Below, piece after piece: positions 7,708 to 51,076 of a stretch of DNA of 64,000 bases (the stretch's first letter is position 1; the number at the start of each line of letters is the position of its first letter). Below the pieces are notes generated by a model. It did not search any database. It was not told where the DNA came from and saw nothing but the letters and a program-made list of their open reading frames with translations. Source of the DNA: Dehalococcoidia bacterium (GTDB lineage Bacteria; Chloroflexota; Dehalococcoidia; UBA2979); contig OZ242017.1 in NCBI GenBank assembly GCA_965204835.1, positions 365,384 through 429,383 of the forward strand, written 5' to 3'. The translations under genes were made by a program, and so were the position numbers.

Positions 7708-7887
7708 TCATGTGCCCCAGAAGCCGGCGAGGCGCAACACGGCGCTGATCAGGATCGCGGCCACGTAGGCCCAGCCGAGCGTGCGCGCGTTGCGGCCGAG
7801 CTGGCGGAACCGCCTGGGCTGCATGATGGTCATCCAGATGATCGCCAGCCCGACGACCACGAATATCCAGTAGACGAGGCGCCACAT
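7708..7887 (-). CDS. small 2-TM membrane protein
   Basis: MWRLVYWIFVVVGLAIIW...LGWAYVAAILISAVLRL; two hydrophobic helices. Confidence 0.6.
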   Translation of the reverse strand: MWRLVYWIFVVVGLAIIWMTIMQPRRFRQLGRNARTLGWAYVAAILISAVLRLAGFWGT

Positions 7888-7941
7888 CGCCTCGCATCGT
7901 AGCGGAGCCCGCCCGCGAGCGGGCGTCGCACCCGGACGGAC

Positions 7942-7987
7942 TGGACGCGAACGCACGTTCTGACTAGACTATGTGAAACGTCTGTTC
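7942..7987 (+). promoter_or_regulatory. sigma70 promoter with two LexA (SOS) boxes
   Basis: -35 TGGACG (7942-7947), 17 nt, -10 TAGACT (7965-7970). Perfect GAAC-GCAC-GTTC at 7949-7960 in the spacer; near-consensus AAAC-GTCT-GTTC at 7976-7987. Confidence 0.75.
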
Positions 7988-8002
7988 GCACGGAGCCGTC
8001 CG

Positions 8003-8254
8003 ATGGTCACCACTGCCCCCACACCCACCCGCACCGTCGAGCGTCCCGCGCGCCCGCGCCGGGCCGTGGCGGACGCCGAGGCTGCCGCCGCCGAGGCGGT
8101 CACGCAGGTGCGCGAGCCGCGCAGGCTGCGTCGCATGGTCGCGTTCGGGCCGCGCTGCCCGGAGTGCGCCGGGCCGCTCGCCTTCGGCGAGGGCTGCTCG
8201 CTCTGCCCCGTCTGCGGCTACTCGAGCTGCACCCCCGCGCGTAGAGGCCCGTAG
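8003..8254 (+). CDS. small zinc-ribbon protein
   Basis: GGAG RBS at 7992-7995, ATG 8003. CPECAGPLAFGEGCSLCPVCGYSSC resembles the C-terminal Zn ribbon of class II ribonucleotide reductases. Confidence 0.7.
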   Translation: MVTTAPTPTRTVERPARPRRAVADAEAAAAEAVTQVREPRRLRRMVAFGPRCPECAGPLAFGEGCSLCPVCGYSSCTPARRGP

Positions 8255-23920: not shown

Positions 23921-24026
23921 TCGGAACTCCTCGCAATGCACATGCGCGCGACGGTGCCCGTCGCGTGTGGTGAGTGGCCTTGTGGGTGTGGGCCGCGATC
24001 AAGTATAGCAGGGGCGCGCGAGTGAC

Positions 24027-24899
24027 CTACTTGTCGCGCCGTTCGGGCAGTTCGGCATGGGTGCCGAGGACGAGGCCTGCGTCACGAACCTGGTCGACGA
24101 GCGAGGTCCACAGTTCGAACAACTCGTTGGGTGAGGCATCGCACGTTTGCTTGAAGCCTTGGCACTTCGTGCGCTTGAAGTACCTGCTAGGGAGAGTGAT
24201 GCTCGGTCGCTTGAAGCCTGCATCTCGGCTCGACTGCGCTGCGGGAAAGAAGCTGAACATGTCATCGACTGGCTCCGAAGGGGTCGCACCCGTGTACAGC
24301 CGCAGCGCGAGGTCTGGGCTCTCGTTCCAGACGATCGGTTCCGCGGTTACGTCGATGAACTCCTGCGGCACGAGCCCCGCCACGTCCTCCTTCATGCTCT
24401 CGGCGCGATAGTCGACGGAAGCCGCCACCACGAAGACGGTATCGAGAACCCACTCGTTGTCGACGCAGCTTCCGAAAACGACTAATGAGCCTCGTGCGAG
24501 TTGCTTCAGTGTCTTACCCGGGCCTCGTGAGCCCCGCCGCTGAGCGCAATTCGAGTACACGAAGTGGTCGCCGAAGATGAAGGGATCGGTGTTGTGCAGC
24601 TCCTCGAAGTCGGCGCGTGCTGTGTAGTGAGGACGCCAGAGACTGCTCGGGAACTGTCTTGAGTCATTACCCGGTGCCTCGAGCTGGCTGACCTTCACGG
24701 ACTCAGCTTCCCACTCCCCCCACGCGTGAAGCTCATCGGGGTGCGTTTGCCCCTCAGCATCAGTCCATGCGCCGTGGAACTCGAGGAACTTGCGTTGGTG
24801 GGCGTGATCACCTGCGAACGAATGCCAATTCTCAGCACATGCATGTCCGTGCTCCCAGCCGGGGTGGTGGAGCTGTATGAAGCAGCGACTATCGGCCAT
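24027..24899 (-). CDS. hypothetical protein, possibly Nmad/PUA-like nucleotide-modification-associated
   Basis: Lower-GC ORF from ATG 24899 with GGAGG RBS. Blocks HPGWEH, RKF, WGEWE, NTDPFIFG..F.YSNC.Q, GSLVVFGS, LDTVFVV. Confidence 0.65.
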   Translation of the reverse strand: MADSRCFIQLHHPGWEHGHACAENWHSFAGDHAHQRKFLEFHGAWTDAEGQTHPDELHAWGEWEAESVKVSQLEAPGNDSRQFPSSLWRPHYTARADFEELHNTDPFIFGDHFVYSNCAQRRGSRGPGKTLKQLARGSLVVFGSCVDNEWVLDTVFVVAASVDYRAESMKEDVAGLVPQEFIDVTAEPIVWNESPDLALRLYTGATPSEPVDDMFSFFPAAQSSRDAGFKRPSITLPSRYFKRTKCQGFKQTCDASPNELFELWTSLVDQVRDAGLVLGTHAELPERRDK

Positions 24900-25731
24900 C
24901 TCGGTACGCCTCCAAGAGGATCGTGCCCAACTCGCGCTTCTGTGAGTCGTGGAGCAGTCCGAACGGTTTCTGCGCAGCCGGACCGAACACGAACAGCGCG
25001 GGCTCGTCGCCGACCCGATACCAGCGTGCTCGCACCTCGTACGGTCGAGAGCGCAACTCGCCGCTTCCTGTTCGATCAAACGTATGGATCAGGTCCCAGC
25101 CGCCGCTGAGTGGCTCGAAGTCAACCCGAGCGAGGTGGTGCTTGGCAACCGATATTGCGACGACATCGGGTTGGAGCGCCTCGAGCAACCCATGCCAGAG
25201 CGGTCCGCCGTCGGCCTCGAGCATCGAGCGCTCGGCGTCGTGCAGCTTGCTCCACGTCGGGCTCGTAGCGACTGGCGAGCAGATGTCGGTGTGGAGCGCC
25301 GTCGAGGTCTCGCCCGCGTAGTAGCTCGCTCCCGCGCCGTTGAGCAGCGGCTCGAAGGCGCTGAACCAGCCCCTGTACGGGTCGGTTCGGTAGTAGGCGG
25401 ACAGCGCCGCGAGGTAGCGCTCGGGCTCGCGGCCTTCGGAGCCCCCGGCGAGTGGGAAGCGCGAGAACGGGTCGTCGGCGGGGAACTCCGCCAGCGACGG
25501 GTTGAGCCCGACGGTCACGACGCGCAGCGGCGACGCAAGGTACGCGTCGAGGTCACCGAAGAACAGGATGGGCGCGGCAGGGCTGACCCGCGACGGTAGC
25601 CTCGCCGCGTCGTCGTACGCGCGCCAGGCGGCTGCCACCAAGTCGAAGAGGTCTGCTTGTGCTGCCAGACGCCGAGCCCCCTGCTCCACACGATCGTAAT
25701 GGTAGTCGAGGCCTCGTGTCGGGCTACTCAC
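24889..25731 (-). CDS. uracil-DNA-glycosylase-fold hypothetical protein
   Basis: PILFFGD...VVTVGLNPS (GxNP motif), HTDICSP, LQPDVV. Overlaps both the murJ stop and the next gene start. Confidence 0.65.
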   Translation of the reverse strand: MSSPTRGLDYHYDRVEQGARRLAAQADLFDLVAAAWRAYDDAARLPSRVSPAAPILFFGDLDAYLASPLRVVTVGLNPSLAEFPADDPFSRFPLAGGSEGREPERYLAALSAYYRTDPYRGWFSAFEPLLNGAGASYYAGETSTALHTDICSPVATSPTWSKLHDAERSMLEADGGPLWHGLLEALQPDVVAISVAKHHLARVDFEPLSGGWDLIHTFDRTGSGELRSRPYEVRARWYRVGDEPALFVFGPAAQKPFGLLHDSQKRELGTILLEAYRDGR

Positions 25732-30156: not shown

Positions 30157-31497
30157 TTGACGCCGACTGCTCCCCGGCCCCAGCCTGCTCACGTGCGGTA
30201 CCACCTCGTCACCCTCGGCTGCGCCAAGAACACCGTCGACTCGATGCGGCTGGAGCGCGCGCTGCGCAACGCGCGCCACGCGCCGGTAGACGAGCCCGGC
30301 GACGCCGACCTCGTGCTCGTGAACACCTGCGGCTTCATCGACGCCGCCAAGGCCGAGTCGATCGAGGTCGTCTCGGAGCTTGACCGCAACCGGCCCGCCG
30401 ACCAGCGGCTCTATGTCGTGGGGTGCATGACGCAGATCGCCGAGGAGGAGGTGCGCGCCGCCGTGCCGGGCGTCGACGCGACGTTCGGCGTCGAGGCGTG
30501 GGACGCGGTGGCCGCCTCGCTCGGCCCCGCCGACCCCCGGTACGACATCCCGCAGCAGAGCGTGCTGCCGATGGGTCCGAGCGCGTACCTCAAGATCTCG
30601 GACGGCTGCGACCGGCCGTGCACGTTCTGCATCATCCCCACCATCAAGGGAGGGATGCGCTCGGAGCCCACCGAGCGCCTGCTCGGCGAAGCGCGCATGT
30701 ACGCCGCCGCGGGCGTGCGCGAGCTGGTGCTCGTGGCGCAGGACTCGACGGCGTATGGCGAGGATCGCCGCGACCGTGACGGCCTCGCGGCGCTGCTGGG
30801 GCAGCTCGCCGCCGAGGTCCCCGAGGTGCCGTGGATCCGGCTGATGTACGCCTACCCCGGCCGAGTGACGCGGCGGCTGGCCGAGACGATGGCGGCGCTG
30901 CCGAACGTGGTGCCCTACCTCGATATCCCGTTGCAGCACGGCTCCGACGCGATGCTGCGGCGGATGAAGCGCCCCTCGCTCCGCACCGCCCGGCGCAGCC
31001 TCGACGCGATCCGCTCGGCCATGCCCGACGTGACAGTGCGCACGACGTTCATCGTGGGCTTCCCCGGCGAGACCGACGCGGAGTTCGAGGAGTTGTTCGA
31101 CTTCGTCGAGGAGCAGCGCTTCGACCACGTCGGCGCGTTCACATACTCGCCGCAGGCCGGCACGCCCGCCGCGGGATACGCCGAGCCCGTGCCGCACGAG
31201 GTGGTCGCGGAGCGCTACGGCGCGCTCATGGAGCTCGCGCAGGAGGTCTCGCACGAGCGCAACCGCGAGCTTGTGGGCAGCGAGCTCGACGTGCTCATCG
31301 AGTCCGAGGCGCCCACGCCGAGCGCGAGCGGCGACCTCGTGTCGGTCGGGCGGAGCGTCCGCGACGCCCCCGAGGTGGACGGCCTCTCGTTCGTGCGCGG
31401 TGAGTTCGCGACCGGCTCGCTGGTCCGTGCGCGCGTCGACGGCGCGATGCCGTACGACCTGCTGTGCTCGCCCGTGGGTGCGCCGATCCGCGCCTGA
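30157..31497 (+). CDS. rimO: ribosomal protein S12 methylthiotransferase RimO
   Basis: LGCAKNTVDS, NTCGFI, CDRPCTFC, RLMYAYP, DAPEVDG. Confidence 0.95.
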   Translation: MTPTAPRPQPAHVRYHLVTLGCAKNTVDSMRLERALRNARHAPVDEPGDADLVLVNTCGFIDAAKAESIEVVSELDRNRPADQRLYVVGCMTQIAEEEVRAAVPGVDATFGVEAWDAVAASLGPADPRYDIPQQSVLPMGPSAYLKISDGCDRPCTFCIIPTIKGGMRSEPTERLLGEARMYAAAGVRELVLVAQDSTAYGEDRRDRDGLAALLGQLAAEVPEVPWIRLMYAYPGRVTRRLAETMAALPNVVPYLDIPLQHGSDAMLRRMKRPSLRTARRSLDAIRSAMPDVTVRTTFIVGFPGETDAEFEELFDFVEEQRFDHVGAFTYSPQAGTPAAGYAEPVPHEVVAERYGALMELAQEVSHERNRELVGSELDVLIESEAPTPSASGDLVSVGRSVRDAPEVDGLSFVRGEFATGSLVRARVDGAMPYDLLCSPVGAPIRA

Positions 31498-31569
31498 CCT
31501 CAGTGCTCGCTAGAGACCCGTAGATGTCGCGGAGGGACGCTAGAGGCGCGGGACTGCAGACGTGCGTGG

Positions 31570-31872
31570 CTAGTCGTCACCGAAGTCGAGCGGCCTCGCA
31601 CTCTCGATGGTAATGATCTCGATCCGCCAGCGTTCCCAATTCGGCGAGTCGTGTGATGCCAACTGGTACACGATGCTGAAGTCATCGTCTCCGTAGACAG
31701 TGCAAATAGCCGGCAAGAGCTTGGTGTAATAGAACTTCGTCACGCCGTCGACGGACGGATCGTCTTCGAGAAGATCGAAGATATGGTCGAGTTTGGCCTG
31801 CGCCTCAGGCCCCGCTGATTCGTAGAACCAGCGGGGCTTGGGGTAGAGATGGACGTGGTATGAGCGGGGCAG
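31570..31872 (-). CDS. putative RelE/ParE-like toxin (non-canonical start)
   Basis: Manual translation LPRSYHVHLYPKPRWFYESAGPEAQAKLDHIFDLLEDDPSVDGVTK...YGDDDFSIVYQ...IEIITI. No ATG/GTG/TTG at the 5' end; CTG 31872 lies just after the upstream stop. Confidence 0.5.
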   Translation of the reverse strand: MPRSYHVHLYPKPRWFYESAGPEAQAKLDHIFDLLEDDPSVDGVTKFYYTKLLPAICTVYGDDDFSIVYQLASHDSPNWERWRIEIITIESARPLDFGDD

Positions 31873-31877
31873 ACTCG

Positions 31878-32051
31878 CTACTTCCGCTTCAGATCTTCTC
31901 GAGGCGTGAGATCGGCCTCTGTGTAGTTGGATTCGAAGTGCTTCGTTACCGATTCCGTGAGGCGTTCGTCATTGTGGATGGCGCGAACGCGGGCAGTTGC
32001 CTCTCGGTGGCGCGTCACCTGCGACTCGATCTCCTTCCGAACTGTGACCAT
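31878..32051 (-). CDS. putative antitoxin (57 aa)
   Basis: Strong GAGGAGG RBS; MVTVRKEIESQVTRHREATARVRAIHNDERLTESVTKHFESNYTEADLTPREDLKRK. Shorter than any ORF listed in the track. Confidence 0.6.
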   Translation of the reverse strand: MVTVRKEIESQVTRHREATARVRAIHNDERLTESVTKHFESNYTEADLTPREDLKRK

Positions 32052-34844: not shown

Positions 34845-35732
34845 ATGGCTGCGGGAACAAGGCATGAGAGGGCGGCGCGGACCGCATTGTCGTCCGCACT
34901 GGTCAGCGTGGCCACAGACGAGTTCCTACGCCTCAGTCAGCGAGGGGGCGAACAGAACGCAGCTCGCGCCGTCGAGTCCGCCCTCCGCGAGCTTGGGGGT
35001 CTGCGGCGCGATGTGATGCCGAACTACAACGACCCATGGGTCGTGCTGTTCTATGCCCTTCGGTATCACGCATCGCACGTGAATCTCGCGTTCTCCACTA
35101 TCCGCAGGGTGCTTCGTGTCAGATCTGGGCACGTGCAGGTCGTAGACTTCGGTGCGGGCACTCTCGCAACACAGTTCGGAGTCGCGCTCACACTTGCCGA
35201 ATCGGGGGCCGACGTGAGCGCAAACGTTCACTGCATCGATGAGAGTCCCGAGATGATGGATCTCGGAGCGAGAATCTGGGAGGCGTTCTCTGAGCGCATC
35301 AGGGATGAGGATCGGCGGATCTACGATGCCTGCGATCGCGTTGCTGCTGTCCGCGTCCGGGAGGACACCGTGGCGATACAAGCCAACGCGAGCAGGTTGC
35401 TCACGGTCTTTCACGCCGCATACGGAGAGAACTCAAGGGAAGTGGCGCAGTCCCTGGCTAAGCTCGGGAAACGGCTCGATCCGCACGCGTGTATTGTGAC
35501 CGCTCAAGAGAGCAAGGCCCCGCTAGCGGCGCGTATGGCGCCAGTAGGCGTTGCTCGCGCCGAGGATGTCCGGCCGATGCTCCGTGGTGACCTCCCGAAG
35601 GTGACAGAGGTGCGGAAGAGGATCTGGTCCTCGATCGGGAGACCATCGGGAATTACCGAGCGCTTCCTGACCATGAGAGTGGGCTGGGAGTGGCCAGGGT
35701 CGGCAATTCTCACCTTCGCCCGTTCGTCATGA
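34845..35732 (+). CDS. SAM-dependent methyltransferase-like hypothetical protein
   Basis: Lower-GC ORF. FYALRY...H, VVDFGAGT (motif I), IDESPEM (motif II). Confidence 0.6.
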   Translation: MAAGTRHERAARTALSSALVSVATDEFLRLSQRGGEQNAARAVESALRELGGLRRDVMPNYNDPWVVLFYALRYHASHVNLAFSTIRRVLRVRSGHVQVVDFGAGTLATQFGVALTLAESGADVSANVHCIDESPEMMDLGARIWEAFSERIRDEDRRIYDACDRVAAVRVREDTVAIQANASRLLTVFHAAYGENSREVAQSLAKLGKRLDPHACIVTAQESKAPLAARMAPVGVARAEDVRPMLRGDLPKVTEVRKRIWSSIGRPSGITERFLTMRVGWEWPGSAILTFARSS

Positions 35733-36658
35733 ACCCCGGCGAGCCGCCCGACCAACCCTCGCTGTTTGACTCCCCACCAGGACAGCCCACCGCATACGAC
35801 GCGGCGTTCCGCACGGGACGCGTCGAGGTCTCCTCGAAGTCCGCGCGCGAGATCCTGATGCGCGCGACCGGGTTCATGGGCGAGTACGACTTCACCCTCA
35901 ACCCGTACAGCGGCTGCGCCTTCGGATGCACGTACTGCTACGCGGCGTTCTTCAGCCGCACGGCCGAGCGACGCGACACGTGGGGCGGATGGGTCGAGGT
36001 CAAGGAGAACGCCGTCGAGCTGATCATGCGGCGCAAGATCGGGAAGCTCGACGGCAAGTGCATCTACATGAGCAGCGTCACCGACCCGTATCAGCCCGTC
36101 GAGCGCACGGTTGGGCTGACGCGCGGGGTGTTGCAGGTGCTCGCCGACCGCCACGCCCCGAAGCTGGTCGTGCAGACGCGCAGTCCAGACGTGGTGCGCG
36201 ACCGCGACCTGTTCCAGCAGATCGAGGATGGCGGCGGGCGTGTCCGCGTCAACATGACTGTGACCACCGACAACGAGGACGTGCGGCGCACGTTCGAGCC
36301 CTTCTGCCCCTCGAATGACCAGCGACTGGAGGCCGTGGCGGAACTGCGCCGGGCCGGCATCGATGTCGGCGTGACGATGACGCCGCTGCTGCTGGTCCGC
36401 GACGCCGAGGCGTTCGCGGAGCGCCTGGTCGAGACCGGGGCGGAGCACTTCATCGCGCAGCCGTTCCACTTCGCGCGCGGCAAGTTCGTCGCCTCGACGC
36501 GCGAGGGGGCGCTGGCGCTGATGGCGGAGAAGCTGGGCTGCGAGGTGGCCGTGTTCCAGTCGCGCTACCTCGATCACTACCGCGAGGTCTTCGAGGTGCT
36601 GGACGCGGCGCTGCCGGAGCTGGGCGAGGGCAAGGACGGATTCGCGCCGCCGTTCTGA
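35729..36658 (+). CDS. radical SAM protein, SPL/Rv2578c-like
   Basis: LNPYSGCAFGCTYCYA, SSVTDPYQPVE, QTRS...RD, FEP. ATGA overlap with the upstream gene. Confidence 0.9.
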   Translation: MNPGEPPDQPSLFDSPPGQPTAYDAAFRTGRVEVSSKSAREILMRATGFMGEYDFTLNPYSGCAFGCTYCYAAFFSRTAERRDTWGGWVEVKENAVELIMRRKIGKLDGKCIYMSSVTDPYQPVERTVGLTRGVLQVLADRHAPKLVVQTRSPDVVRDRDLFQQIEDGGGRVRVNMTVTTDNEDVRRTFEPFCPSNDQRLEAVAELRRAGIDVGVTMTPLLLVRDAEAFAERLVETGAEHFIAQPFHFARGKFVASTREGALALMAEKLGCEVAVFQSRYLDHYREVFEVLDAALPELGEGKDGFAPPF

Positions 36659-45195: not shown

Positions 45196-46173
45196 ATGGG
45201 CTTACCCGTTGTCCGGCATCTGCTGCGGCCCCGGCACGCGCCGGCGTGGCTGCTGCTCGCCGTGGCGCTCGCGTGCGTCGCGCTGGCGGGCTGCACGGGG
45301 CGCGAGGGAGACGACGCGCCCGTCGAGGCGCCGCAGGCAACGGCAACCCCGGCCGCGCCCGCACCGGCGACCGCAACGGCGACTGCGGCGCCGACCCTCG
45401 ACATGCCGTCGCCGGAGTCGCTGGATGCGGCGCTGCAGGCGTTGATCGGCAGCATGCGCGGTGGCGGGACCGATCCGTTCGGGGGGCCGCCCGAGGCGCT
45501 CCCGCCGGAGCTGCGCGCGCTACTCGAGGCGCTCGGCATCGACCTGCTGCTCGGCGCGGCCGTGAACGAGGCGCGTGGCGGCCTGGCCGTCGAGGTGGTG
45601 TTCGCCGGCTCGCCCGCCGAGCAGGCCAAACTCCGCACCGGCGACGTGATCGTCGCGATCGATGGTGTGCCGGTGAGTTCCGGCGCGGAGCTTCGCGCGG
45701 CGGTGCAGGCCATGACGGCCAGCGAGGTCTTCGTCCTCACGCTGGACCGTGGCGGGGCCACGCGCATGATCGGCGTCGTGCGCCCGTCCTCGGAGGAGTC
45801 GTTCTGGCGCTCGGACATGCTCAGGACGCTCGCGCTGGGTCTCATGCTGGCGAACCGCCCGGGCGGGCTCGCGCTGCCGCCGTCGCTGCTCGGCGAGCTG
45901 ATGGAGGAGACGCCGGACGGTCTGCGCGTGTTCGCGGTGTTCCCCGGCTCGCCCGCAGACGCCGCTGGACTGCGCGCCGGCGACTACGTGCTTGCGATCG
46001 AAGGCCGCGCGATGCGCACGCTCGACGACCTCAACGAGTTCATGACGAGCTTCAATCCCCTCGCCGGTGACACCGAGGTGACGCTGCGGCGGGATGGCCG
46101 CGAGATGACGGTCCGCGTCGCGTTCCGGATCGGCGGGCTGTTCGGCGCCGGGGCGCCCGCCCCCGCCGAGTAG
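45196..46173 (+). CDS. lipoprotein with two PDZ domains
   Basis: Lipobox LAGC; GSPAEQAKLRTGDVIVAIDG and GSPADAAGLRAGDYVLAIEG. Confidence 0.85.
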   Translation: MGLPVVRHLLRPRHAPAWLLLAVALACVALAGCTGREGDDAPVEAPQATATPAAPAPATATATAAPTLDMPSPESLDAALQALIGSMRGGGTDPFGGPPEALPPELRALLEALGIDLLLGAAVNEARGGLAVEVVFAGSPAEQAKLRTGDVIVAIDGVPVSSGAELRAAVQAMTASEVFVLTLDRGGATRMIGVVRPSSEESFWRSDMLRTLALGLMLANRPGGLALPPSLLGELMEETPDGLRVFAVFPGSPADAAGLRAGDYVLAIEGRAMRTLDDLNEFMTSFNPLAGDTEVTLRRDGREMTVRVAFRIGGLFGAGAPAPAE

Positions 46174-46185
46174 CCGGGCGACCCC

Positions 46186-47451
46186 TCATGTCGCGGCCTC
46201 CAGCAGGCCCGTGTCGTCGCGAGGAAACACCGGCGCCCACGAGATGTCCGTGCGCACGCCGTCGAACGTGCGGCCCGTGTGGTGGGCGAGCACGCGCAGC
46301 GTGAGCGCGTCGCGCTGCCGCAGCGCGGCGGTGCGGATCAGCCGCTTGCGCGCCACCTTGCGCAGCAGTGGGTCGAGCTCGATGCGCAGCGCGACGCCGG
46401 AGTGGTCGCCGCCGCCGTCGCCGAACGCGACGCGCGGCGTCTCCGCCAGGTCGTGCAGCGTGCGGTACACCAGGTCGACGTAGTCGACGTGCAGGCGCAC
46501 GCCGCCGCCCTGCAGCAGGTCCAGCAGGTAGGCGCGCGCCTGCTCCGGCAGCTCCCACACCGCGCCCGGCTGCACCGCGATGTCGCGTGACGCCTCGACG
46601 TTCTCGAGGACGGCGATGGGGTTCCCGGACAGCTCGATGATGCGGCTGAGCTGCGTGAGCGCGCGGTTGAGCTCGACGATCGACTCGCGCAGCGGCTCGA
46701 TGTCGGAGACGCCCCAGAGGTGCTTGGGGCGCGGGACGTTGGGGTAGATGACGAACGGGATCACGCCGTACGGGTTGGCGCGCGCCTCCGCCAGCTCCTC
46801 CTCTACCCAGAACTCGAAGCGCTCGGCCGTCCACACCTCGGTGACCTGCACCGAGGCCGGCGGGCGGCCGCCCGCGCCGCGCGGGAGCCGGCCCGTGCGC
46901 GCCTCGACCTGCTCGGGCGCCACCTCGTAGCGCGACGCGACGCGCCAGATGCGGCGCACGTCGTCGCCGAGGCTCCAGGCGTGGAGGCCCTGCACGTCGG
47001 GCGCGGAGACTACGACACGCTGCTCGCGCTCGTCCCACGTCACCTTGTAGGCGCCGTCGCCGAGCACGGCGGTGTCCAGCTCGCCGTCGAGGTCGAGGCG
47101 CAGCAGGTCGTTCGCCTCCCACATCTCGAGGAGCGCGCGCTCCGCCTCGGCGGCGCGACGCCGGCCCTCGGGCGTCTCCTCGGCGGCGGTGACCACGGGG
47201 CGGTGGTCGCTCACGAGGTAGGCCGCGCCCTTCTCGACGAAGGCGCGGGCGTAGTTGAAGTGCAGCATCCGCTCGCGCCGCGACCCGGGCGCCGCGCCGC
47301 GCCGGCCCTCGAAGAAGTCGAGCAGCTCGCGGTAGCGTGCGAAGCGGTCGCGGTCACGCTGCGCGAGCGCGCGCGGGAACGCGACGTGCCCGGCGGACGA
47401 GGCCGCCGAGGGCGCCGAGGGGATGCCGAGGCTTGCGGCGGTCGTGGTCAT
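46186..47451 (-). CDS. phage portal protein (SPP1 gp6-like)
   Basis: 421 aa from ATG 47451. LDFFEG, FNYARAFVEK, AVLGDG, NPYGVIPFVIYPN....WGVSD, SGVAL, I.W.PVFP.D. Confidence 0.85.
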   Translation of the reverse strand: MTTTAASLGIPSAPSAASSAGHVAFPRALAQRDRDRFARYRELLDFFEGRRGAAPGSRRERMLHFNYARAFVEKGAAYLVSDHRPVVTAAEETPEGRRRAAEAERALLEMWEANDLLRLDLDGELDTAVLGDGAYKVTWDEREQRVVVSAPDVQGLHAWSLGDDVRRIWRVASRYEVAPEQVEARTGRLPRGAGGRPPASVQVTEVWTAERFEFWVEEELAEARANPYGVIPFVIYPNVPRPKHLWGVSDIEPLRESIVELNRALTQLSRIIELSGNPIAVLENVEASRDIAVQPGAVWELPEQARAYLLDLLQGGGVRLHVDYVDLVYRTLHDLAETPRVAFGDGGGDHSGVALRIELDPLLRKVARKRLIRTAALRQRDALTLRVLAHHTGRTFDGVRTDISWAPVFPRDDTGLLEAAT

Positions 47452-47822
47452 CGAGGCATCTCCTCCATGCTGCGTCGCGGAGTGGCGGCCGCCCGGGCCG
47501 GGTCGCGGGGCGCGCCCTCCAGGGCGCGGAACACCGTGCGGCGCGAGACCTGGAAGCGGCGCGCAATCTCGTTCACGGCGACGCCGCCGTCCAGGCGCAT
47601 GCGCCGGATCTCGCGGTCGCGCACGCGGTTGAGCATGGCGCGCACGCCGCCCGGCTCGTCGTAGCGGCAGCGTGGGAGCGGGCAGCTCAGGCACGAGGGG
47701 AACAGGTCGCAGCCGCGGTCGCGGTAGTCGACATGCTCCGGCAGCGCGTCCTCGCGGATCAGCCGCGGCGGCGCCGCGGGTGCGTCGAGGGCGGGCGTCG
47801 GGCTCGGTGAAGCAAGACTCAT
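47448..47822 (-). CDS. Cys4-motif + helix-turn-helix protein
   Basis: 124 aa from ATG 47822. YRDRGCDLFPSCLSCPLPRC then VNEIARRFQVSRRTVFRAL. Confidence 0.8.
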   Translation of the reverse strand: MSLASPSPTPALDAPAAPPRLIREDALPEHVDYRDRGCDLFPSCLSCPLPRCRYDEPGGVRAMLNRVRDREIRRMRLDGGVAVNEIARRFQVSRRTVFRALEGAPRDPARAAATPRRSMEEMPR

Positions 47823-49252
47823 GTGGTGACCTCCATCGAAGCAGGCGCGCCGAGCGCGCCGCGGCCCCGCGCCGTGCGTGAGCCGCCGCCGTGGCGAGCG
47901 GCGTCGACGGCCAGCGCGAGGCTCATCAGGTAGTCGTCGTGCCCGTCGGCGGGGTCGACGTGGAATTGCATCGTGCGCTCGTCGCGGTAGACGGCGCGGG
48001 CCAGCTCCAGCTGGCGGCGGCACTCGGCCGCCTCGGCCGAGCCGTCCGCGCGGTACAGCCGGAGCCGGCCGGAGTGCGCCGCCGCCAGCAGCCCGAAGCC
48101 GAGCTGCGACTTGCGCGGGGTGCTGAACACGACCGCGTCGACGCGGCCGCTGGGGAGACGGCGCGCGAGCAGGTCGGCGATCGGCGCGCCGAGGCCCGTC
48201 GCGTCGACGGCGAGGCGGCGCACGCGCCACGTGTTGCGCAGCCGGTCGGCCAGCGTCTCGACGATCGCGTCGGTCGCCTCGCCTCGCCACGCCTGGTGCT
48301 CGACCACCTCGATGGTGGGGAGCCCACCGGCGGTCGAGCGCACGCGCGCGATCGTGAGCACGGTCCAGTCGCGGTCGCGCGCGTGCGTGTGACCGTCGAG
48401 GGCCGGCCCGGCGAGGTCGAGGCCCGCGACGTAGTGCTCGCCGGGGAAGGGCGAGCGCAGCCGCTCGTGGCGCCCCTCGAGCTGCGCGCGCACCGCCGCG
48501 TCCAGCAGGCGGTCCTCGTCGTGCAGGACGTCGAGGAGGTACTGCGTGCGGAAGATCGGGTGGCGCTCGCCGAGCCGCGCGCGTTCGCCCTCGACATACG
48601 CGCCGTACGCGGGATTCGCGTCGGCGACCCGCTCCCAGTCCACGCGGAAGTGGCGGCGCGGGCCGCCGGCGCGCTCGGCGTCGAGGTGCTGTGCCTCGGC
48701 CTGCGCGAGCAGCGAGCGCGGCCCCCACGGCGTGCCGTAGTAGACCACCGGCGCGTTCGTCGACGCCGCCATCGGGCGGAAGTCGCGGTCGAACTTGTCG
48801 GGCCGCACGTCCTGCGCCTCGTCGACCTCGAGCAGCACGTCGGCCGTGTGGCCCACGACGTTCGCGCCGGGCTCGGCGGAGAGGTAGCGCACGCTCGCGT
48901 GGCCGCAGCGCACCGTCGCGGCGCCCTCGCGCGCGACGACGCGTTCGAGGCCCGCCTCGCGGGCGCGGGCGAGCAGGCGGTCGCGCGAGAGCATGGCCTG
49001 CGGGGAGAACGTCGGGGCGCACTTCACGGCCGTGCCGCCGCGCACGGCGCGCGTGAGCAGCAGCGCGAGCTCGACCTGCGCCGAGATCTCGTTCTTGCCG
49101 CCCTGGCGCGCGATCAGCACGGAGATCGAGCCGCCCTCGCGCGCTGCGGTCAGCCCGAGGATCGCGCGGGCGACCTCGGCCTGGTACGGGCGCAGCTGCG
49201 GCAGCGCCCGCGAGCGCTCCTCGGCGCGTGCGGCCGTCGCGGTGGCGCTCAT
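47819..49252 (-). CDS. phage terminase large subunit
   Basis: LRPYQ, Walker A-like ARQGGKNE, Walker B LEVDEAQD, coupling motif YGTP, nuclease acids AGLDLAG, VDATGLG, HDD. Confidence 0.88.
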   Translation of the reverse strand: MSATATAARAEERSRALPQLRPYQAEVARAILGLTAAREGGSISVLIARQGGKNEISAQVELALLLTRAVRGGTAVKCAPTFSPQAMLSRDRLLARAREAGLERVVAREGAATVRCGHASVRYLSAEPGANVVGHTADVLLEVDEAQDVRPDKFDRDFRPMAASTNAPVVYYGTPWGPRSLLAQAEAQHLDAERAGGPRRHFRVDWERVADANPAYGAYVEGERARLGERHPIFRTQYLLDVLHDEDRLLDAAVRAQLEGRHERLRSPFPGEHYVAGLDLAGPALDGHTHARDRDWTVLTIARVRSTAGGLPTIEVVEHQAWRGEATDAIVETLADRLRNTWRVRRLAVDATGLGAPIADLLARRLPSGRVDAVVFSTPRKSQLGFGLLAAAHSGRLRLYRADGSAEAAECRRQLELARAVYRDERTMQFHVDPADGHDDYLMSLALAVDAARHGGGSRTARGRGALGAPASMEVTT

Positions 49253-49482
49253 CAGCCCGCCACCCGGCTGAGCAGCTCGGTGATGCCGACCCCGACCACG
49301 GTCAGGAACAGCGCCGTGATGCGCCCGCGCAGCTCGGACAGCTCGCGCTCGACACGGTCGAGGCGGCCCGCGAGGTCGTGCGCCGGGGGAGGCGGCTCCT
49401 CGCGTCGCGCGCCGCCGCGCGGAGACGCGAGCCTGCGCACGGCGCGGGCGAGGCGGTCGGGGGGCGGGCGGCGCCTACTCAC
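49252..49482 (-). CDS. small coiled-coil protein with C-terminal TM helix
   Basis: RLDRVERELSELRGRI then TALFLTVVGVGIT; overlaps both neighbours. Confidence 0.7.
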   Translation of the reverse strand: MSRRRPPPDRLARAVRRLASPRGGARREEPPPPAHDLAGRLDRVERELSELRGRITALFLTVVGVGITELLSRVAG

Positions 49483-49795
49483 GGGGCGCTCCCAGCACCT
49501 CGCCGAACTCCTCGAGCACGTTCGCGACGGCGTCGCCCAGGTGCTCGGCCTGCTTCGGGGAGAGGCGGTGCTGCGCCAGCAGCGCCTGCACCAGCAGGCG
49601 CACGCCGCTCTGCAGCACCTTCGGGTCGACGTCCGCGTCGCGGTCGGCGAGGGCGCGACGGAGCTGCAGCCGCAGCAGCGCGACCTCGTCGTCGAGACCC
49701 TCGACCTCGCGCGCGACGTGGAAGTCGTGGCGGTCGGCGGCGTCGAGCACCGAGTCGTAGAAGCTGGCGCGCGTCGGGCGCTCGGCGGGGCTCAC
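49475..49795 (-). CDS. putative terminase small-subunit-like protein
   Basis: Helical 106 aa with SFYDSVLD...EGLDDEVALLRL, two genes upstream of TerL. Function is inferred. Confidence 0.55.
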   Translation of the reverse strand: MSPAERPTRASFYDSVLDAADRHDFHVAREVEGLDDEVALLRLQLRRALADRDADVDPKVLQSGVRLLVQALLAQHRLSPKQAEHLGDAVANVLEEFGEVLGAPRE

Positions 49796-49938
49796 CGGCG
49801 CTCCACGCTGAGCAGCGCGACCATCTCGTCGCGCGTGTCGGGTGCGGCCACGTCGAGGGCGTGCAGCACGCCGAGCACGAGCCGCAGCGCGGCCGCTTCG
49901 TAGCGCTGCTCGCGGAGCGCGGCGTCCAGGGCGCTCAT
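49792..49938 (-). CDS. 48-aa hypothetical protein
   Basis: MSALDAALREQRYEAAALRLVLGVL...; ATGA and GTGA overlaps on both sides. Confidence 0.6.
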   Translation of the reverse strand: MSALDAALREQRYEAAALRLVLGVLHALDVAAPDTRDEMVALLSVERR

Positions 49939-50216
49939 CGCCCGGCCCCCATCGCGATCACCGCGCCGGTGGCGGCGTTGGCGAGCAGTAGCGGTGCGCG
50001 CAGCAGCGCGCCCGCCGCGCCCGGCTCGGAGAGCCCGACCGCCGCGAGGGCGTCGAGGCTGATGGCGGCGAACAGCGCCGTGAGCAGGAGCGCACCGAGC
50101 CGGCGCGCTCCTCCGGCGCGGAACGCGCGGTGCGCGAAGTAGGCGGCGTTCGCCGCGCCGGTGCCGGCGATGGCGGCATGCTCGGCGAACGTGACGGCGG
50201 ACCAGAATGGATGCAC
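49935..50216 (-). CDS. small multi-TM membrane protein
   Basis: GGAAGGGAAG RBS, GTG 50216; 93 aa with about three hydrophobic segments. Confidence 0.6.
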   Translation of the reverse strand: MHPFWSAVTFAEHAAIAGTGAANAAYFAHRAFRAGGARRLGALLLTALFAAISLDALAAVGLSEPGAAGALLRAPLLLANAATGAVIAMGAGR

Positions 50217-50259
50217 GGTCTTCCCTTCCCGGTGGCCGGGAGCGGGCCACGTGGGAAGG

Positions 50260-50289
50260 AGGGTAGAACACCCGTTCGTGCGCAGCCAA
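50260..50289 (-). promoter_or_regulatory. promoter overlapped by a LexA (SOS) box
   Basis: Minus strand TTGGCT (50289-50284), 18 nt, TACCCT (50265-50260; same -10 as the rpoB promoter). Perfect GAAC-N4-GTTC at 50266-50277. Confidence 0.7.
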
Positions 50290-50338
50290 GTCACAATCGG
50301 CATTTACAACAAACCCGATAAACGAGGATCGTCCGGAT

Positions 50339-50968
50339 CTAGAGGACGACCGCCGGAATGCTCACCCTGCGCGCGAGGTGCTCGCGCGTCTCCGTCGCCA
50401 GCGGGTGGATCTCGCGGCCCATCGCGCGGTCGCGCTGCTCGGTGAGGGTGAGGTAGGCGAGCGCCGCCGCCTCGAGCGAGTCGTCGGCGAGGTCGAGCAC
50501 CTGCTGGAGCGCGGGCCAGGCGGCGAGCTTCTTCTCCTCGACCTTGTCGGCGACGAACATCGACCACGCCTCGAGGCCGTAGTCGGGGTGGCCGGTGGTG
50601 TGGTAGCGGATCGCGTCGAGCACGCGCGGGTCCTGCACGTTGAAGCGCTCCTCGAGCTCGATGGCGGCGAGGGGGCCGTGCAGCAGCACCGGGCGCTCGC
50701 GCTCCAGCGGGAGCATCGGCAGGCCGCGTTCATCGGCCCGCCGCAGCCACTCCTGCTTCGAGAGGGCGCGCAGCAGGTCGTGCCCCTGGGCAGCGCGCAG
50801 CGCGGCCGCGAGGTCGGCGCCGTGGCGGCGCGCGAAGAGCTCGGTGAGCCCGACGACGCGCGCGATGTGCGCCATCATCTCGGTCGGCACCTCGGGCGCC
50901 ATGCGGCCGCGCAGCGCGAAGTGGTCGGGCTCCGGGCGGAAGCGCGGGCGGTCGTCGTTCGCTGGCAT
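50339..50968 (-). CDS. yqeK: YqeK-like HD-domain Ap4A hydrolase
   Basis: H..RV, GHDL, LLHGP, IRYHTTG, FVADKVE. Confidence 0.8.
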   Translation of the reverse strand: MPANDDRPRFRPEPDHFALRGRMAPEVPTEMMAHIARVVGLTELFARRHGADLAAALRAAQGHDLLRALSKQEWLRRADERGLPMLPLERERPVLLHGPLAAIELEERFNVQDPRVLDAIRYHTTGHPDYGLEAWSMFVADKVEEKKLAAWPALQQVLDLADDSLEAAALAYLTLTEQRDRAMGREIHPLATETREHLARRVSIPAVVL

Positions 50969-51076
50969 CGACGCCGATTGTACGGACGCGGCGGCCAGTC
51001 CGCCCACGCGAAGGCAGCGCCGGGTTCCGGCGCCGCCCGTGCGTTGGGCCGCGTGCCTGTGTGCGTCGCGTCGAGG

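Follow-up and report, generated by a model that had tools for sequence, protein, structure and literature searches.

A split set of phage packaging and capsid genes with a putative LexA-controlled promoter in one family of Dehalococcoidia: a candidate GTA- or PBSX-like particle

We analysed a stretch of 64,000 nucleotides (hereafter the window) from the genome of a Dehalococcoidia bacterium (Chloroflexota; contig OZ242017.1 of assembly GCA_965204835.1). The source genome, G000, is a single contig of 2.73 Mb with about 72% GC and 94.65% completeness, in which the window occupies G000:C1:365384-429383. Between 46186 and 50289 of the window lie seven minus-strand genes, hereafter locus A, which include the large terminase subunit (TerL) and the portal of a tailed-phage packaging motor. 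A preliminary description made from the letters of the window had read them as a domesticated packaging operon of a system like a gene transfer agent (GTA), under host LexA control and with its structural genes elsewhere. All seven open reading frames (ORFs) were present, and genes for a major capsid protein (MCP), an adaptor and a tail hub were indeed found elsewhere, at G000:C1:2424032-2428416 (locus B), about 2 Mb away. From their gene content and conservation, loci A and B together are a candidate for a GTA- or PBSX-like particle. The features of locus A, in order of transcription, are as follows.

50260-50289, minus strand: putative SOS promoter, -35 TTGGCT at 50289-50284 and -10 TACCCT at 50265-50260, with an 18-nt spacer
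50266-50277, minus strand: LexA box GAACGGGTGTTC, within the -35/-10 spacer and 50 bp upstream of the GTG start
49935-50216, minus strand: putative transmembrane (TM) protein, 93 aa from the GTG (122 aa from an upstream ATG), first gene after the promoter
49792-49938, minus strand: 48-aa protein (p48), an ORF with ATGA and GTGA overlaps
49475-49795, minus strand: 106-aa protein (p106), an ORF, candidate small terminase (TerS) by position only
49252-49482, minus strand: 76-aa protein (p76) with a basic N-terminus, a coiled-coil-like middle and a C-terminal hydrophobic segment
47819-49252, minus strand: TerL, 477 aa, ATPase and RNaseH-like nuclease (PF17289, phrog_7579, motifs)
47448-47822, minus strand: Cys-cluster/helix-turn-helix (HTH) protein (CysHTH), 124 aa, candidate late-gene activator (HTH_7, phrog_836)
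46186-47451, minus strand: portal of SPP1 type, 421 aa (PF05133, phrog_64)

Start and stop codons overlap at every junction, as had been described: ATGA joins the 93-aa gene to p48, TerL to CysHTH and CysHTH to the portal, GTGA joins p48 to p106, p106 and p76 share 8 nt, and p76 passes into TerL through TGATG. The portal, which is the sole PF05133 match in G000, matched SPP1_portal at 3.5e-10 (39.9 bits against a gathering cut-off of 25.5, model positions 10-377 of 416) and phrog_64 at 1.1e-18. TerL, encoded by a single-copy gene, matched Terminase_6C (PF17289) at 7.6e-7 and phrog_7579 at 5e-9. Its ATPase and nuclease motifs had been judged intact, and ARQxGKN, LLExDExQ, YGT, D279, D350 and HDD439-440 were unchanged in all 19 homologues aligned, the lowest identity among them being 43%; we take these to be Walker A, Walker B, the coupling motif and the acidic triad of the nuclease. 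TerL has the ASCE (additional strand, catalytic E) ATPase motifs and the C-terminal RNaseH-like nuclease acidic residues of a tailed-phage large terminase. CysHTH matched HTH_7 (1.5e-5) and phrog_836, "late transcriptional activator" (7.8e-8). Across 18 homologues its C47 and C52 were invariant and C38 and C44 nearly so, and a homologue sits at other positions in 17 of 80 mobile relatives from IMG/VR.

The four small proteins of locus A had no match in Pfam, PHROG or NCBIfam searches. The 93-aa protein, conserved in the family loci, had been described as having three TM segments; hydropathy supported two strong segments and only weakly a third, with runs at 39-65 and 69-92. It is possibly a holin-like lysis or membrane factor. 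An ESM Atlas search with this protein returned only unnamed archaeal clusters (0.88-0.90), with recognition under the mark. Homologues of p48 were found by tblastn in most, not all, family loci at 40-98% identity. The single C-terminal hydrophobic run of p76 (53-76) agrees with the earlier mention of a TM segment, and p76 is kept between p106 and TerL in Dehalococcoidia loci.

The preliminary description had called p106 TerS-like. Its position fits, since in relatives both chromosomal and mobile (65 of the 80 IMG/VR loci) it lies directly upstream of TerL; no family or fold match was obtained. The AlphaFold2 model is all-helical with five helices (pLDDT 75), and a Foldseek search against BFVD gave 0 matches at E<=0.001. 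In a PDB profile search, only designed helical proteins and similar entries appeared (best E 0.0031), and p106 was not recognised as TerS in this way. A predicted complex of p106 with TerL residues 1-260 scored a median of 0.46 (runs 0.46, 0.60 and 0.02) against 0.00 for the best control, which was graded "weak support"; the runs share at least 25% of contacts and the partner pLDDT is 47-53. Of 80 solved complexes, 58 passed the mark for such scores, as did 2 of 110 mismatched pairs; passes at scores of 0.60 or less came from only 7 of the 80 solved complexes and from both mismatches. Because the profile and fold searches were null and the complex score was weak, p106 is kept as a TerS candidate on position only.

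The flanks of locus A had been described as ordinary host genes. The PDZ protein was confirmed; the name yqeK was not borne out for the gene at 50339-51007, which had no Pfam match at E<=0.1. Exact direct repeats flanking the operon were not found, nor was a tRNA within 38-58 kb of the window. The earlier statement that integrase and att sites are missing held for exact repeats and for 46322-50752 (L001), where there was no integrase-like match; the flanks beyond lie outside the integrase scan. The integrase-like matches of G000 were only two distant chromosomal recombinase genes, 26-29% identical to the integrase of L167, a mobile relative described below. The GC content at 46-50 kb was 0.74-0.77, compared with 0.61-0.77 over the whole window, and the GC content at third codon positions in locus A genes was 0.87-0.96, compared with a genome median of 0.94. 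The lower-GC cassettes mentioned earlier correspond to the 1-kb bins 1001-2000, 24001-25000, 31001-32000 and 35001-36000 of the window, with GC of 0.61-0.65 against about 0.72 elsewhere.

Locus B was found by searching G000 with PF05065, which gave one capsid gene. Its five genes, all on the minus strand, are bounded by ruvB and a gene for a rimI-like acetyltransferase, and their order is kept through the class, often adjoining ruvB.

Minus strand: scaffold-like protein, 152 aa, acidic and coiled, assigned by position and composition
Minus strand: MCP, 296 aa (phrog_212, 2.6e-72; NF045672 epsilon15 gp7, 207.5 bits against a cut-off of 75)
Minus strand: adaptor, 206 aa (PF24175 SU10_adaptor, 2.3e-8)
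Minus strand: baseplate-hub-like tail protein (b658), 658 aa, assigned by fold match
Minus strand: 68-aa protein (b68), with no family match and no PDB profile match

The model of the 658-aa protein (pLDDT 90) was matched by Foldseek to baseplate hubs and central spikes, namely the Anabaena contractile injection system (7b5h_AJ, 4.9e-16), Mu gp44 (1.5e-12), T4 gp27 and VgrG, and also to sialidase and lectin propellers. In the sequence, residues 121-145 gave a BNR-like match (PDB profile, a marginal sialidase BNR, E 0.052) and residues 569-637 matched a tail-protein PHROG. Given these fold matches and the positions of the two sequence matches, the protein is probably an N-terminal beta-propeller followed by a C-terminal hub. 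For the 68-aa protein we have only an impression of a spike or OB-fold. The particle implied by the two gene sets would be a head with a short adaptor-hub tail.

The LexA box of locus A is of the Gram-positive type, GAAC-N4-GTTC, which we take to be the LexA box of Dehalococcoides. A sigma-70 consensus scan of 45900-50500 called neither a promoter nor a terminator, and the promoter given above was recognised by aligning the relatives. LexA-type boxes were present in 26 of the 51 loci scanned (22 of 47 distinct). In all 23 box-bearing loci listed (19 distinct genomes), the box begins 5-8 nt downstream of a TTG-type -35 and abuts a TAnnnT -10, and the 4-nt spacer inside the box varies while the position of the box holds across genera. 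This comparative conservation of position is the decisive evidence for the predicted SOS promoter. As a control for chance, the window contained 2 box matches against 0.38 expected, and 6 of 100 shuffles reached 2, a result that is weak alone. Genome-wide, 33 matches were counted against 22.4 ± 4.6 in Markov-1 simulations, and 15 of the 33 fall in the 16.5% of sequence outside called genes, including one 42 bp upstream of recA. The box at ruvB was scored within a mis-called ORF and is not among the 15, and lexA carries a box with one mismatch. The locus A box lies in a promoter, is conserved in orthologous promoters and is common to core SOS genes of G000, as in a LexA regulon. The host LexA control proposed in the preliminary description is supported by this conserved promoter architecture, on which LexA would be predicted to bind. 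In the second subclade of the genus, the left half of the box has one mismatch, GCAC or GTAC in place of GAAC.

Other boxes of this type were noted. The second one of the window, GAACGCACGTTC at 7949-7960, lies between the divergent ORFs 7708-7956 (minus strand) and 7973-8254 (plus strand). Further intergenic GAAC-N4-GTTC boxes of G000 occur at G000:C1 positions 908382, 909838, 1890949, 89449 and 810816; two of these flank a divergent pair of genes (405 and 1162 aa) and one precedes a 510-aa gene, possibly an error-prone polymerase cassette and a comM-like gene. In another Chloroflexota clade (L056-L060) there are two boxes per operon, the first about 1.3 kb ahead of TerL and the second between p106 and TerL, at -298.

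The distribution of the genes was determined in 61 genomes including G000, with the genus represented by 18 species. RecA served as a control.

TerL: 18 of 18 genus species; 46 of the 61 relatives
Portal: 16 of 18 genus species; 46 of the 61 relatives
MCP: 17 of 18 genus species; 39 of the 61 relatives
RecA (control): 17 of 18 genus species; 55 of the 61 relatives

TerL was full-length and stop-free in 14 of the 18 genus species. Synteny of locus A extends through the genus and to 7 other genera of its family, and both loci were syntenic in about half of the family; ABC transporters beside the portal and the gene at 50339-51007 upstream are flanks common across genera. Identity to G000 tracked that of RecA, with Spearman coefficients of 0.92 for TerL (n=31), 0.97 for the portal (n=31) and 0.93 for MCP (n=27), kin not being independent. 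TerL and RecA trees of the same 20 genomes contained the same groups, and G006 alone moved. In a TerL tree of 134 rows the 21 genome loci of the family grouped in a single clade (SH-like support 100), with 0 integrase matches, 0 IMG/VR members and the box in 14 of the 21 loci.

Selection was assessed as dN/dS (omega) by NG86 in close pairs. In comparisons with three close species, the dS of the module genes equalled that of the flanking host genes; against G018, for example, dS was 0.31 for TerL and 0.37 for the portal, and 0.34 and 0.30 for the flanking genes ABC_A and NasA. Most module genes had an omega of 0.10-0.30 against the three closest species, and the flanking host genes 0.06-0.40. 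For TerL, portal, MCP, adaptor and p106, omega was 0.06-0.32 at dS of 0.1-0.4 (TerL 0.16-0.27, portal 0.06-0.18), and intact copies in the second genus subclade gave the same range, 0.06-0.32. The values for p48 were 0.18-0.30 against the three closest species, and those for p76, 0.35-0.59, were the highest in the module. Collectively, synteny, tree congruence and substitution rates lead to the conclusion that loci A and B have been inherited vertically under purifying selection in one Dehalococcoidia family, which agrees with the vertical inheritance first supposed for the packaging module. The conclusion applies to the family and not to the whole class, because the class-level copies from metagenome-assembled genomes (MAGs) G049, G050 and G059 nest among mobile elements in the TerL tree.

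No close sequenced phage was found; the best TerL was 30.7% identical (Bacillus phage vB_BboS-125) and the best MCP 42.1% (Pseudomonas phage PaMx28). IMG/VR contained 196 relatives, listed as viral contigs, of which 80 were kept (L125-L204). Their genes are contiguous, with 43-52% identity in TerL and 35-69% in MCP, in the order p106, TerL, portal, scaffold, MCP, adaptor and hub. Across the 80 loci TerL was found in 80, the portal in 77, MCP in 73, the scaffold-like gene in 68, p106 in 65, the adaptor in 58 and the hub in 38. Thirty-six of the 80 carry a tyrosine integrase, located in most cases 1-2 kb upstream of p106. The 62-bp terminal repeat of one 18.4-kb contig, L167, suggests that this element is complete and circular. 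G000 has a homologue of every recognisable structural gene of L167 and of no other L167 gene, except for recombinase-like matches to the integrase. The mobile relatives form a TerL clade separate from that of the family, and unlike them the family copies are without integrase, flanked by host genes, preceded by the LexA promoter and split. Integrase-bearing elements of about 18 kb are likely the source lineage of loci A and B.

Some mobile relatives carry other genes: a leucine-rich-repeat protein is encoded between MCP and adaptor (L183, 13766-14857), and a Z1/ResIII helicase-like gene lies near the integrase of L148 (7052-8905). Forty-four of the 80 "viral" contigs had no integrase on the stretch covered, most of them being short. 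Some of these integrase-less contigs may be host chromosome with a domesticated copy.

The distance between the two gene sets differs among the genomes. TerL and MCP are contiguous in G046, G050 and G059, and 12-33 kb apart with host genes between in three other genera (G020, G034, G035). In the nine genus genomes with both on one contig they are 305-783 kb apart (eight genomes) or about 2 Mb apart (G000). This series, from mobile integrase-bearing elements through contiguous chromosomal copies, splits of 12-33 kb and splits of 0.3-2 Mb to decaying copies, may represent stages of domestication. Since the loci are at least 0.3 Mb apart in the genus and the mobile relatives are only about 18 kb long, a particle would probably be unable to carry its own genes, and its content would then be host DNA, as it is in GTAs and PBSX-like particles. 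A second, independent split was also observed, in which p106-TerL lies beside homoserine dehydrogenase and histidine kinase genes (L066) and portal and MCP lie elsewhere in that MAG (G064:C11:471904-474646).

Considering these observations, it appears fairly probable that loci A and B encode a particle-forming, domesticated phage structural system. The preliminary description had also allowed for a repurposed DNA-translocation machine; this reading is disfavoured because capsid, adaptor and tail-tip genes are conserved together with the packaging genes. As in GTAs, the phage-like structural genes are fixed, vertically inherited and under purifying selection without an integrase match, and replication genes were not recognised, no search having been aimed at them. 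That the particles truly transfer genes is a tentative proposition, to which we give somewhat less than even weight. With similar reserve we propose that this family of Dehalococcoidia keeps an independently arisen, minimal GTA of about 12 genes, derived from an 18-kb podovirus-like temperate element, switched directly by LexA and relayed by the phage-derived Cys-HTH protein to a capsid locus up to 2 Mb away; DNA damage in these slow-growing, uncultured bacteria would set off packaging of chromosomal DNA and its export to kin.

On the broader reading of a domesticated, particle-forming system, the ancestor would have been an element of about 18 kb with an integrase, such as still occurs in Chloroflexota metagenomes. 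Its integrase and non-structural genes would have been lost in the ancestor of the family, and the complete structural set kept. LexA would sit on the box between the -35 and -10 of the locus A promoter, and DNA damage would lift this repression. The Cys-HTH protein would then turn on locus B, a relay that we propose because no LexA box precedes the scaffold-like gene. Capsids would assemble on the portal, TerS and TerL would cut DNA and pump it in, the adaptor and hub would close the particle, and the membrane proteins would aid its release.

The GTA of Rhodobacter capsulatus (RcGTA; Alphaproteobacteria) is the natural comparison, made here on its generally known features. In both systems, head, packaging and tail genes of phage origin are unaccompanied by integrase or replication genes; both descend vertically under purifying selection, occupy more than one locus, are controlled by the host and have been lost in some lineages. 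Unlike RcGTA, the present candidate system has an epsilon15 gp7-type capsid and an SPP1-type portal with no sequence kinship shown, and comprises only about 12 genes. It also differs in having no tube, tape-measure or sheath genes, only the adaptor and the hub-like protein, and an apparent direct LexA operator. Phage GIL01 is an active temperate phage that has no tail and that multiplies as a linear plasmid; unlike it, the genes described here are chromosomally fixed and have no independent replication. RcGTA-type GTAs are treated in PMC10883770 and PMC9765227, and direct repression of GIL01 genes by host LexA at promoter SOS boxes, a parallel to the control proposed for locus A, in PMC4551915. 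The IME1 elements of Dehalococcoides, which are without tailed-phage hallmark proteins (10.64898/2026.09.15.751708), are a different entity.

Several observations weigh against a functional particle system of this kind. Four of the 18 genus species carry damaged copies (G009, G012, G014 and G017; L205-L208). In G009 the first four operon genes and residues 1-212 of TerL are missing, in G014 and G017 TerL is truncated and the portal absent, and G012 has a frameshift in TerL, which could be an assembly error. Nine of the 18 other genera of the family had no TerL match, and G029 and G030 retain only fragments, some with stop codons. All four damaged copies belong to the genus subclade with the GCAC or GTAC box half (L205-L208 and L025-L027), and loss of LexA control and decay may be linked. 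The system can thus be dispensed with, and some lineages are losing it. Outside the family, its nearest relatives are elements with an integrase. In 7 of the 7 genus genomes read, no LexA box occurs within 260 bp upstream of the scaffold-like gene. The Walker A motif of TerL ends in N instead of S/T, and p106 is a TerS candidate by its position alone. There was no match in G000 to PF04586 (prohead protease), PF04233 (Mu F), PF10145 (tape measure) or PF04984 (sheath), and an endolysin, a tail fibre and a prohead protease were not identified in this genome. Head capacity is presumed from the 18.4-kb relative. A search of RNA sequencing runs returned none that contains the locus. Of the signs that the preliminary description had named as telling against its own proposal, damaged copies and sister genera without TerL were thus in part encountered. 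Losses in some lineages are also known for GTAs.

Two MCP copies were seen in G012 (G012:C4:3591-4478 and G012:C1:2061070-2061894); the intact one has 92% identity and lies on another contig, and the other has 82-83% and is split in two. This could be a strain mixture or a duplication.

The particle might instead be an SOS-triggered, PBSX-type killer or lysis particle or a route of DNA release, in which host DNA is packaged and not productively delivered, with kin competition or extracellular DNA as the benefit. Its genomic signature would be the same as that of a GTA, the tail is reduced to adaptor and hub, the small membrane protein encoded by the first operon gene could be a holin, and the LexA promoter resembles the control of SOS-inducible PBSX. 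Like the system as proposed here, PBSX of Bacillus is a chromosomally fixed, SOS-inducible defective phage that packs host DNA into heads too small for its own genes; PBSX differs in having a contractile tail, its own repressor and one contiguous locus, whereas the present genes imply a stub tail, occupy two loci and are preceded at locus A by a host LexA box. The well-conserved beta-propeller of the hub-like protein could serve to bind a cell surface, which is what attachment and delivery would lead one to expect, and we consider a PBSX-type particle unlikely. Sequence does not decide between delivery, killing and interference with phages.

Somewhat harder to uphold is a cryptic prophage remnant, functionless and slowly decaying, in which conservation would reflect recent common ancestry only. 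The damaged copies, the stop-bearing fragments and the sister genera without TerL speak for it. In G000, however, all 12 ORFs are intact, and most genus species keep a full-length TerL. Omega at the dS reached is as low in the module as in the flanking host genes, and the catalytic motifs are invariant across distant homologues. Moreover, promoter and box are kept across genera, and gene order and content were kept after the loci had separated. A mere remnant therefore seems decidedly unlikely.

A satellite-like or anti-phage system is a third possibility, namely the remnant of a capsid-forming island that is induced by damage or infection and redirects the packaging, or steals the tails, of an incoming phage. 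Like the capsid-forming phage-inducible chromosomal islands (cf-PICIs), it would be a small element with its own TerS, TerL, portal, scaffold, capsid and head-tail adaptor; an integrase just upstream in the 36 IMG/VR relatives and the Z1/ResIII helicase gene in one of them also fit. The cf-PICIs, unlike the present loci, have retained an integrase together with regulation and replication modules, and take their tails from a helper. The family copies had no integrase match, and replication genes were not recognised, no dedicated search having been made. No tail need be stolen, because the relatives and G000 encode their own hub-like tail-tip protein, and the element cannot move, because its two loci are split. 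We regard a satellite as improbable.

An active temperate phage or mobile element with its remaining genes outside the regions examined, to which the listing of relatives as viral contigs and the terminal repeat of L167 might point, is scarcely tenable for two loci that are separated by about 2 Mb in G000, and by no less than 305 kb in 8 other genomes of the genus, among conserved host flanks, with a TerL tree that matches that of RecA, no att repeats, tRNA or integrase match at the locus and only the two distant recombinases elsewhere.

GTAs and GTA-like particles are known from few lineages: Alphaproteobacteria, Bartonella, Brachyspira, Desulfovibrio and Methanococcus. Full-text literature searches gave no description of a GTA or GTA-like particle in Chloroflexota. 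If particles are made, the system would be an independent domestication in a phylum that is important for the subsurface and for organohalide cycling and whose gene flow is poorly understood. It would also offer a very compact model of host takeover of phage genes, with one promoter, one operator and two loci, and a case that preserves the stages of domestication from mobile relatives through decaying copies. In practical terms, some of the 196 "viral" relatives in IMG/VR may be host chromosome with a domesticated system, as the integrase-less 44 of the 80 kept would allow.

Packaging genes related to those of locus A were also seen in other arrangements. Thermogemmatispora tikiterensis T81 (L088, 10001-11443) and loci L084 and L089-L092 carry a lone TerL homologue (44% identity) in which Walker B and the acidic residues of the nuclease are preserved and Walker A reads ARQMGKN; the genes on either side encode a HEAT-repeat protein and a Ser/Thr kinase. 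The queries used matched neither an MCP nor a portal in G061 and G062, two of the cultured Ktedonobacteria/Thermogemmatispora genomes, or in the MAG G063, and the Ktedonobacteria terminase looks like a conserved orphan. In G056 (L039, L040 and others), seven TerL matches, four of them full-length at 46-48% identity, accompany one portal and one MCP match, and L040 has p106-p76-TerL without a portal; the packaging genes alone seem to have expanded here by paralogy.

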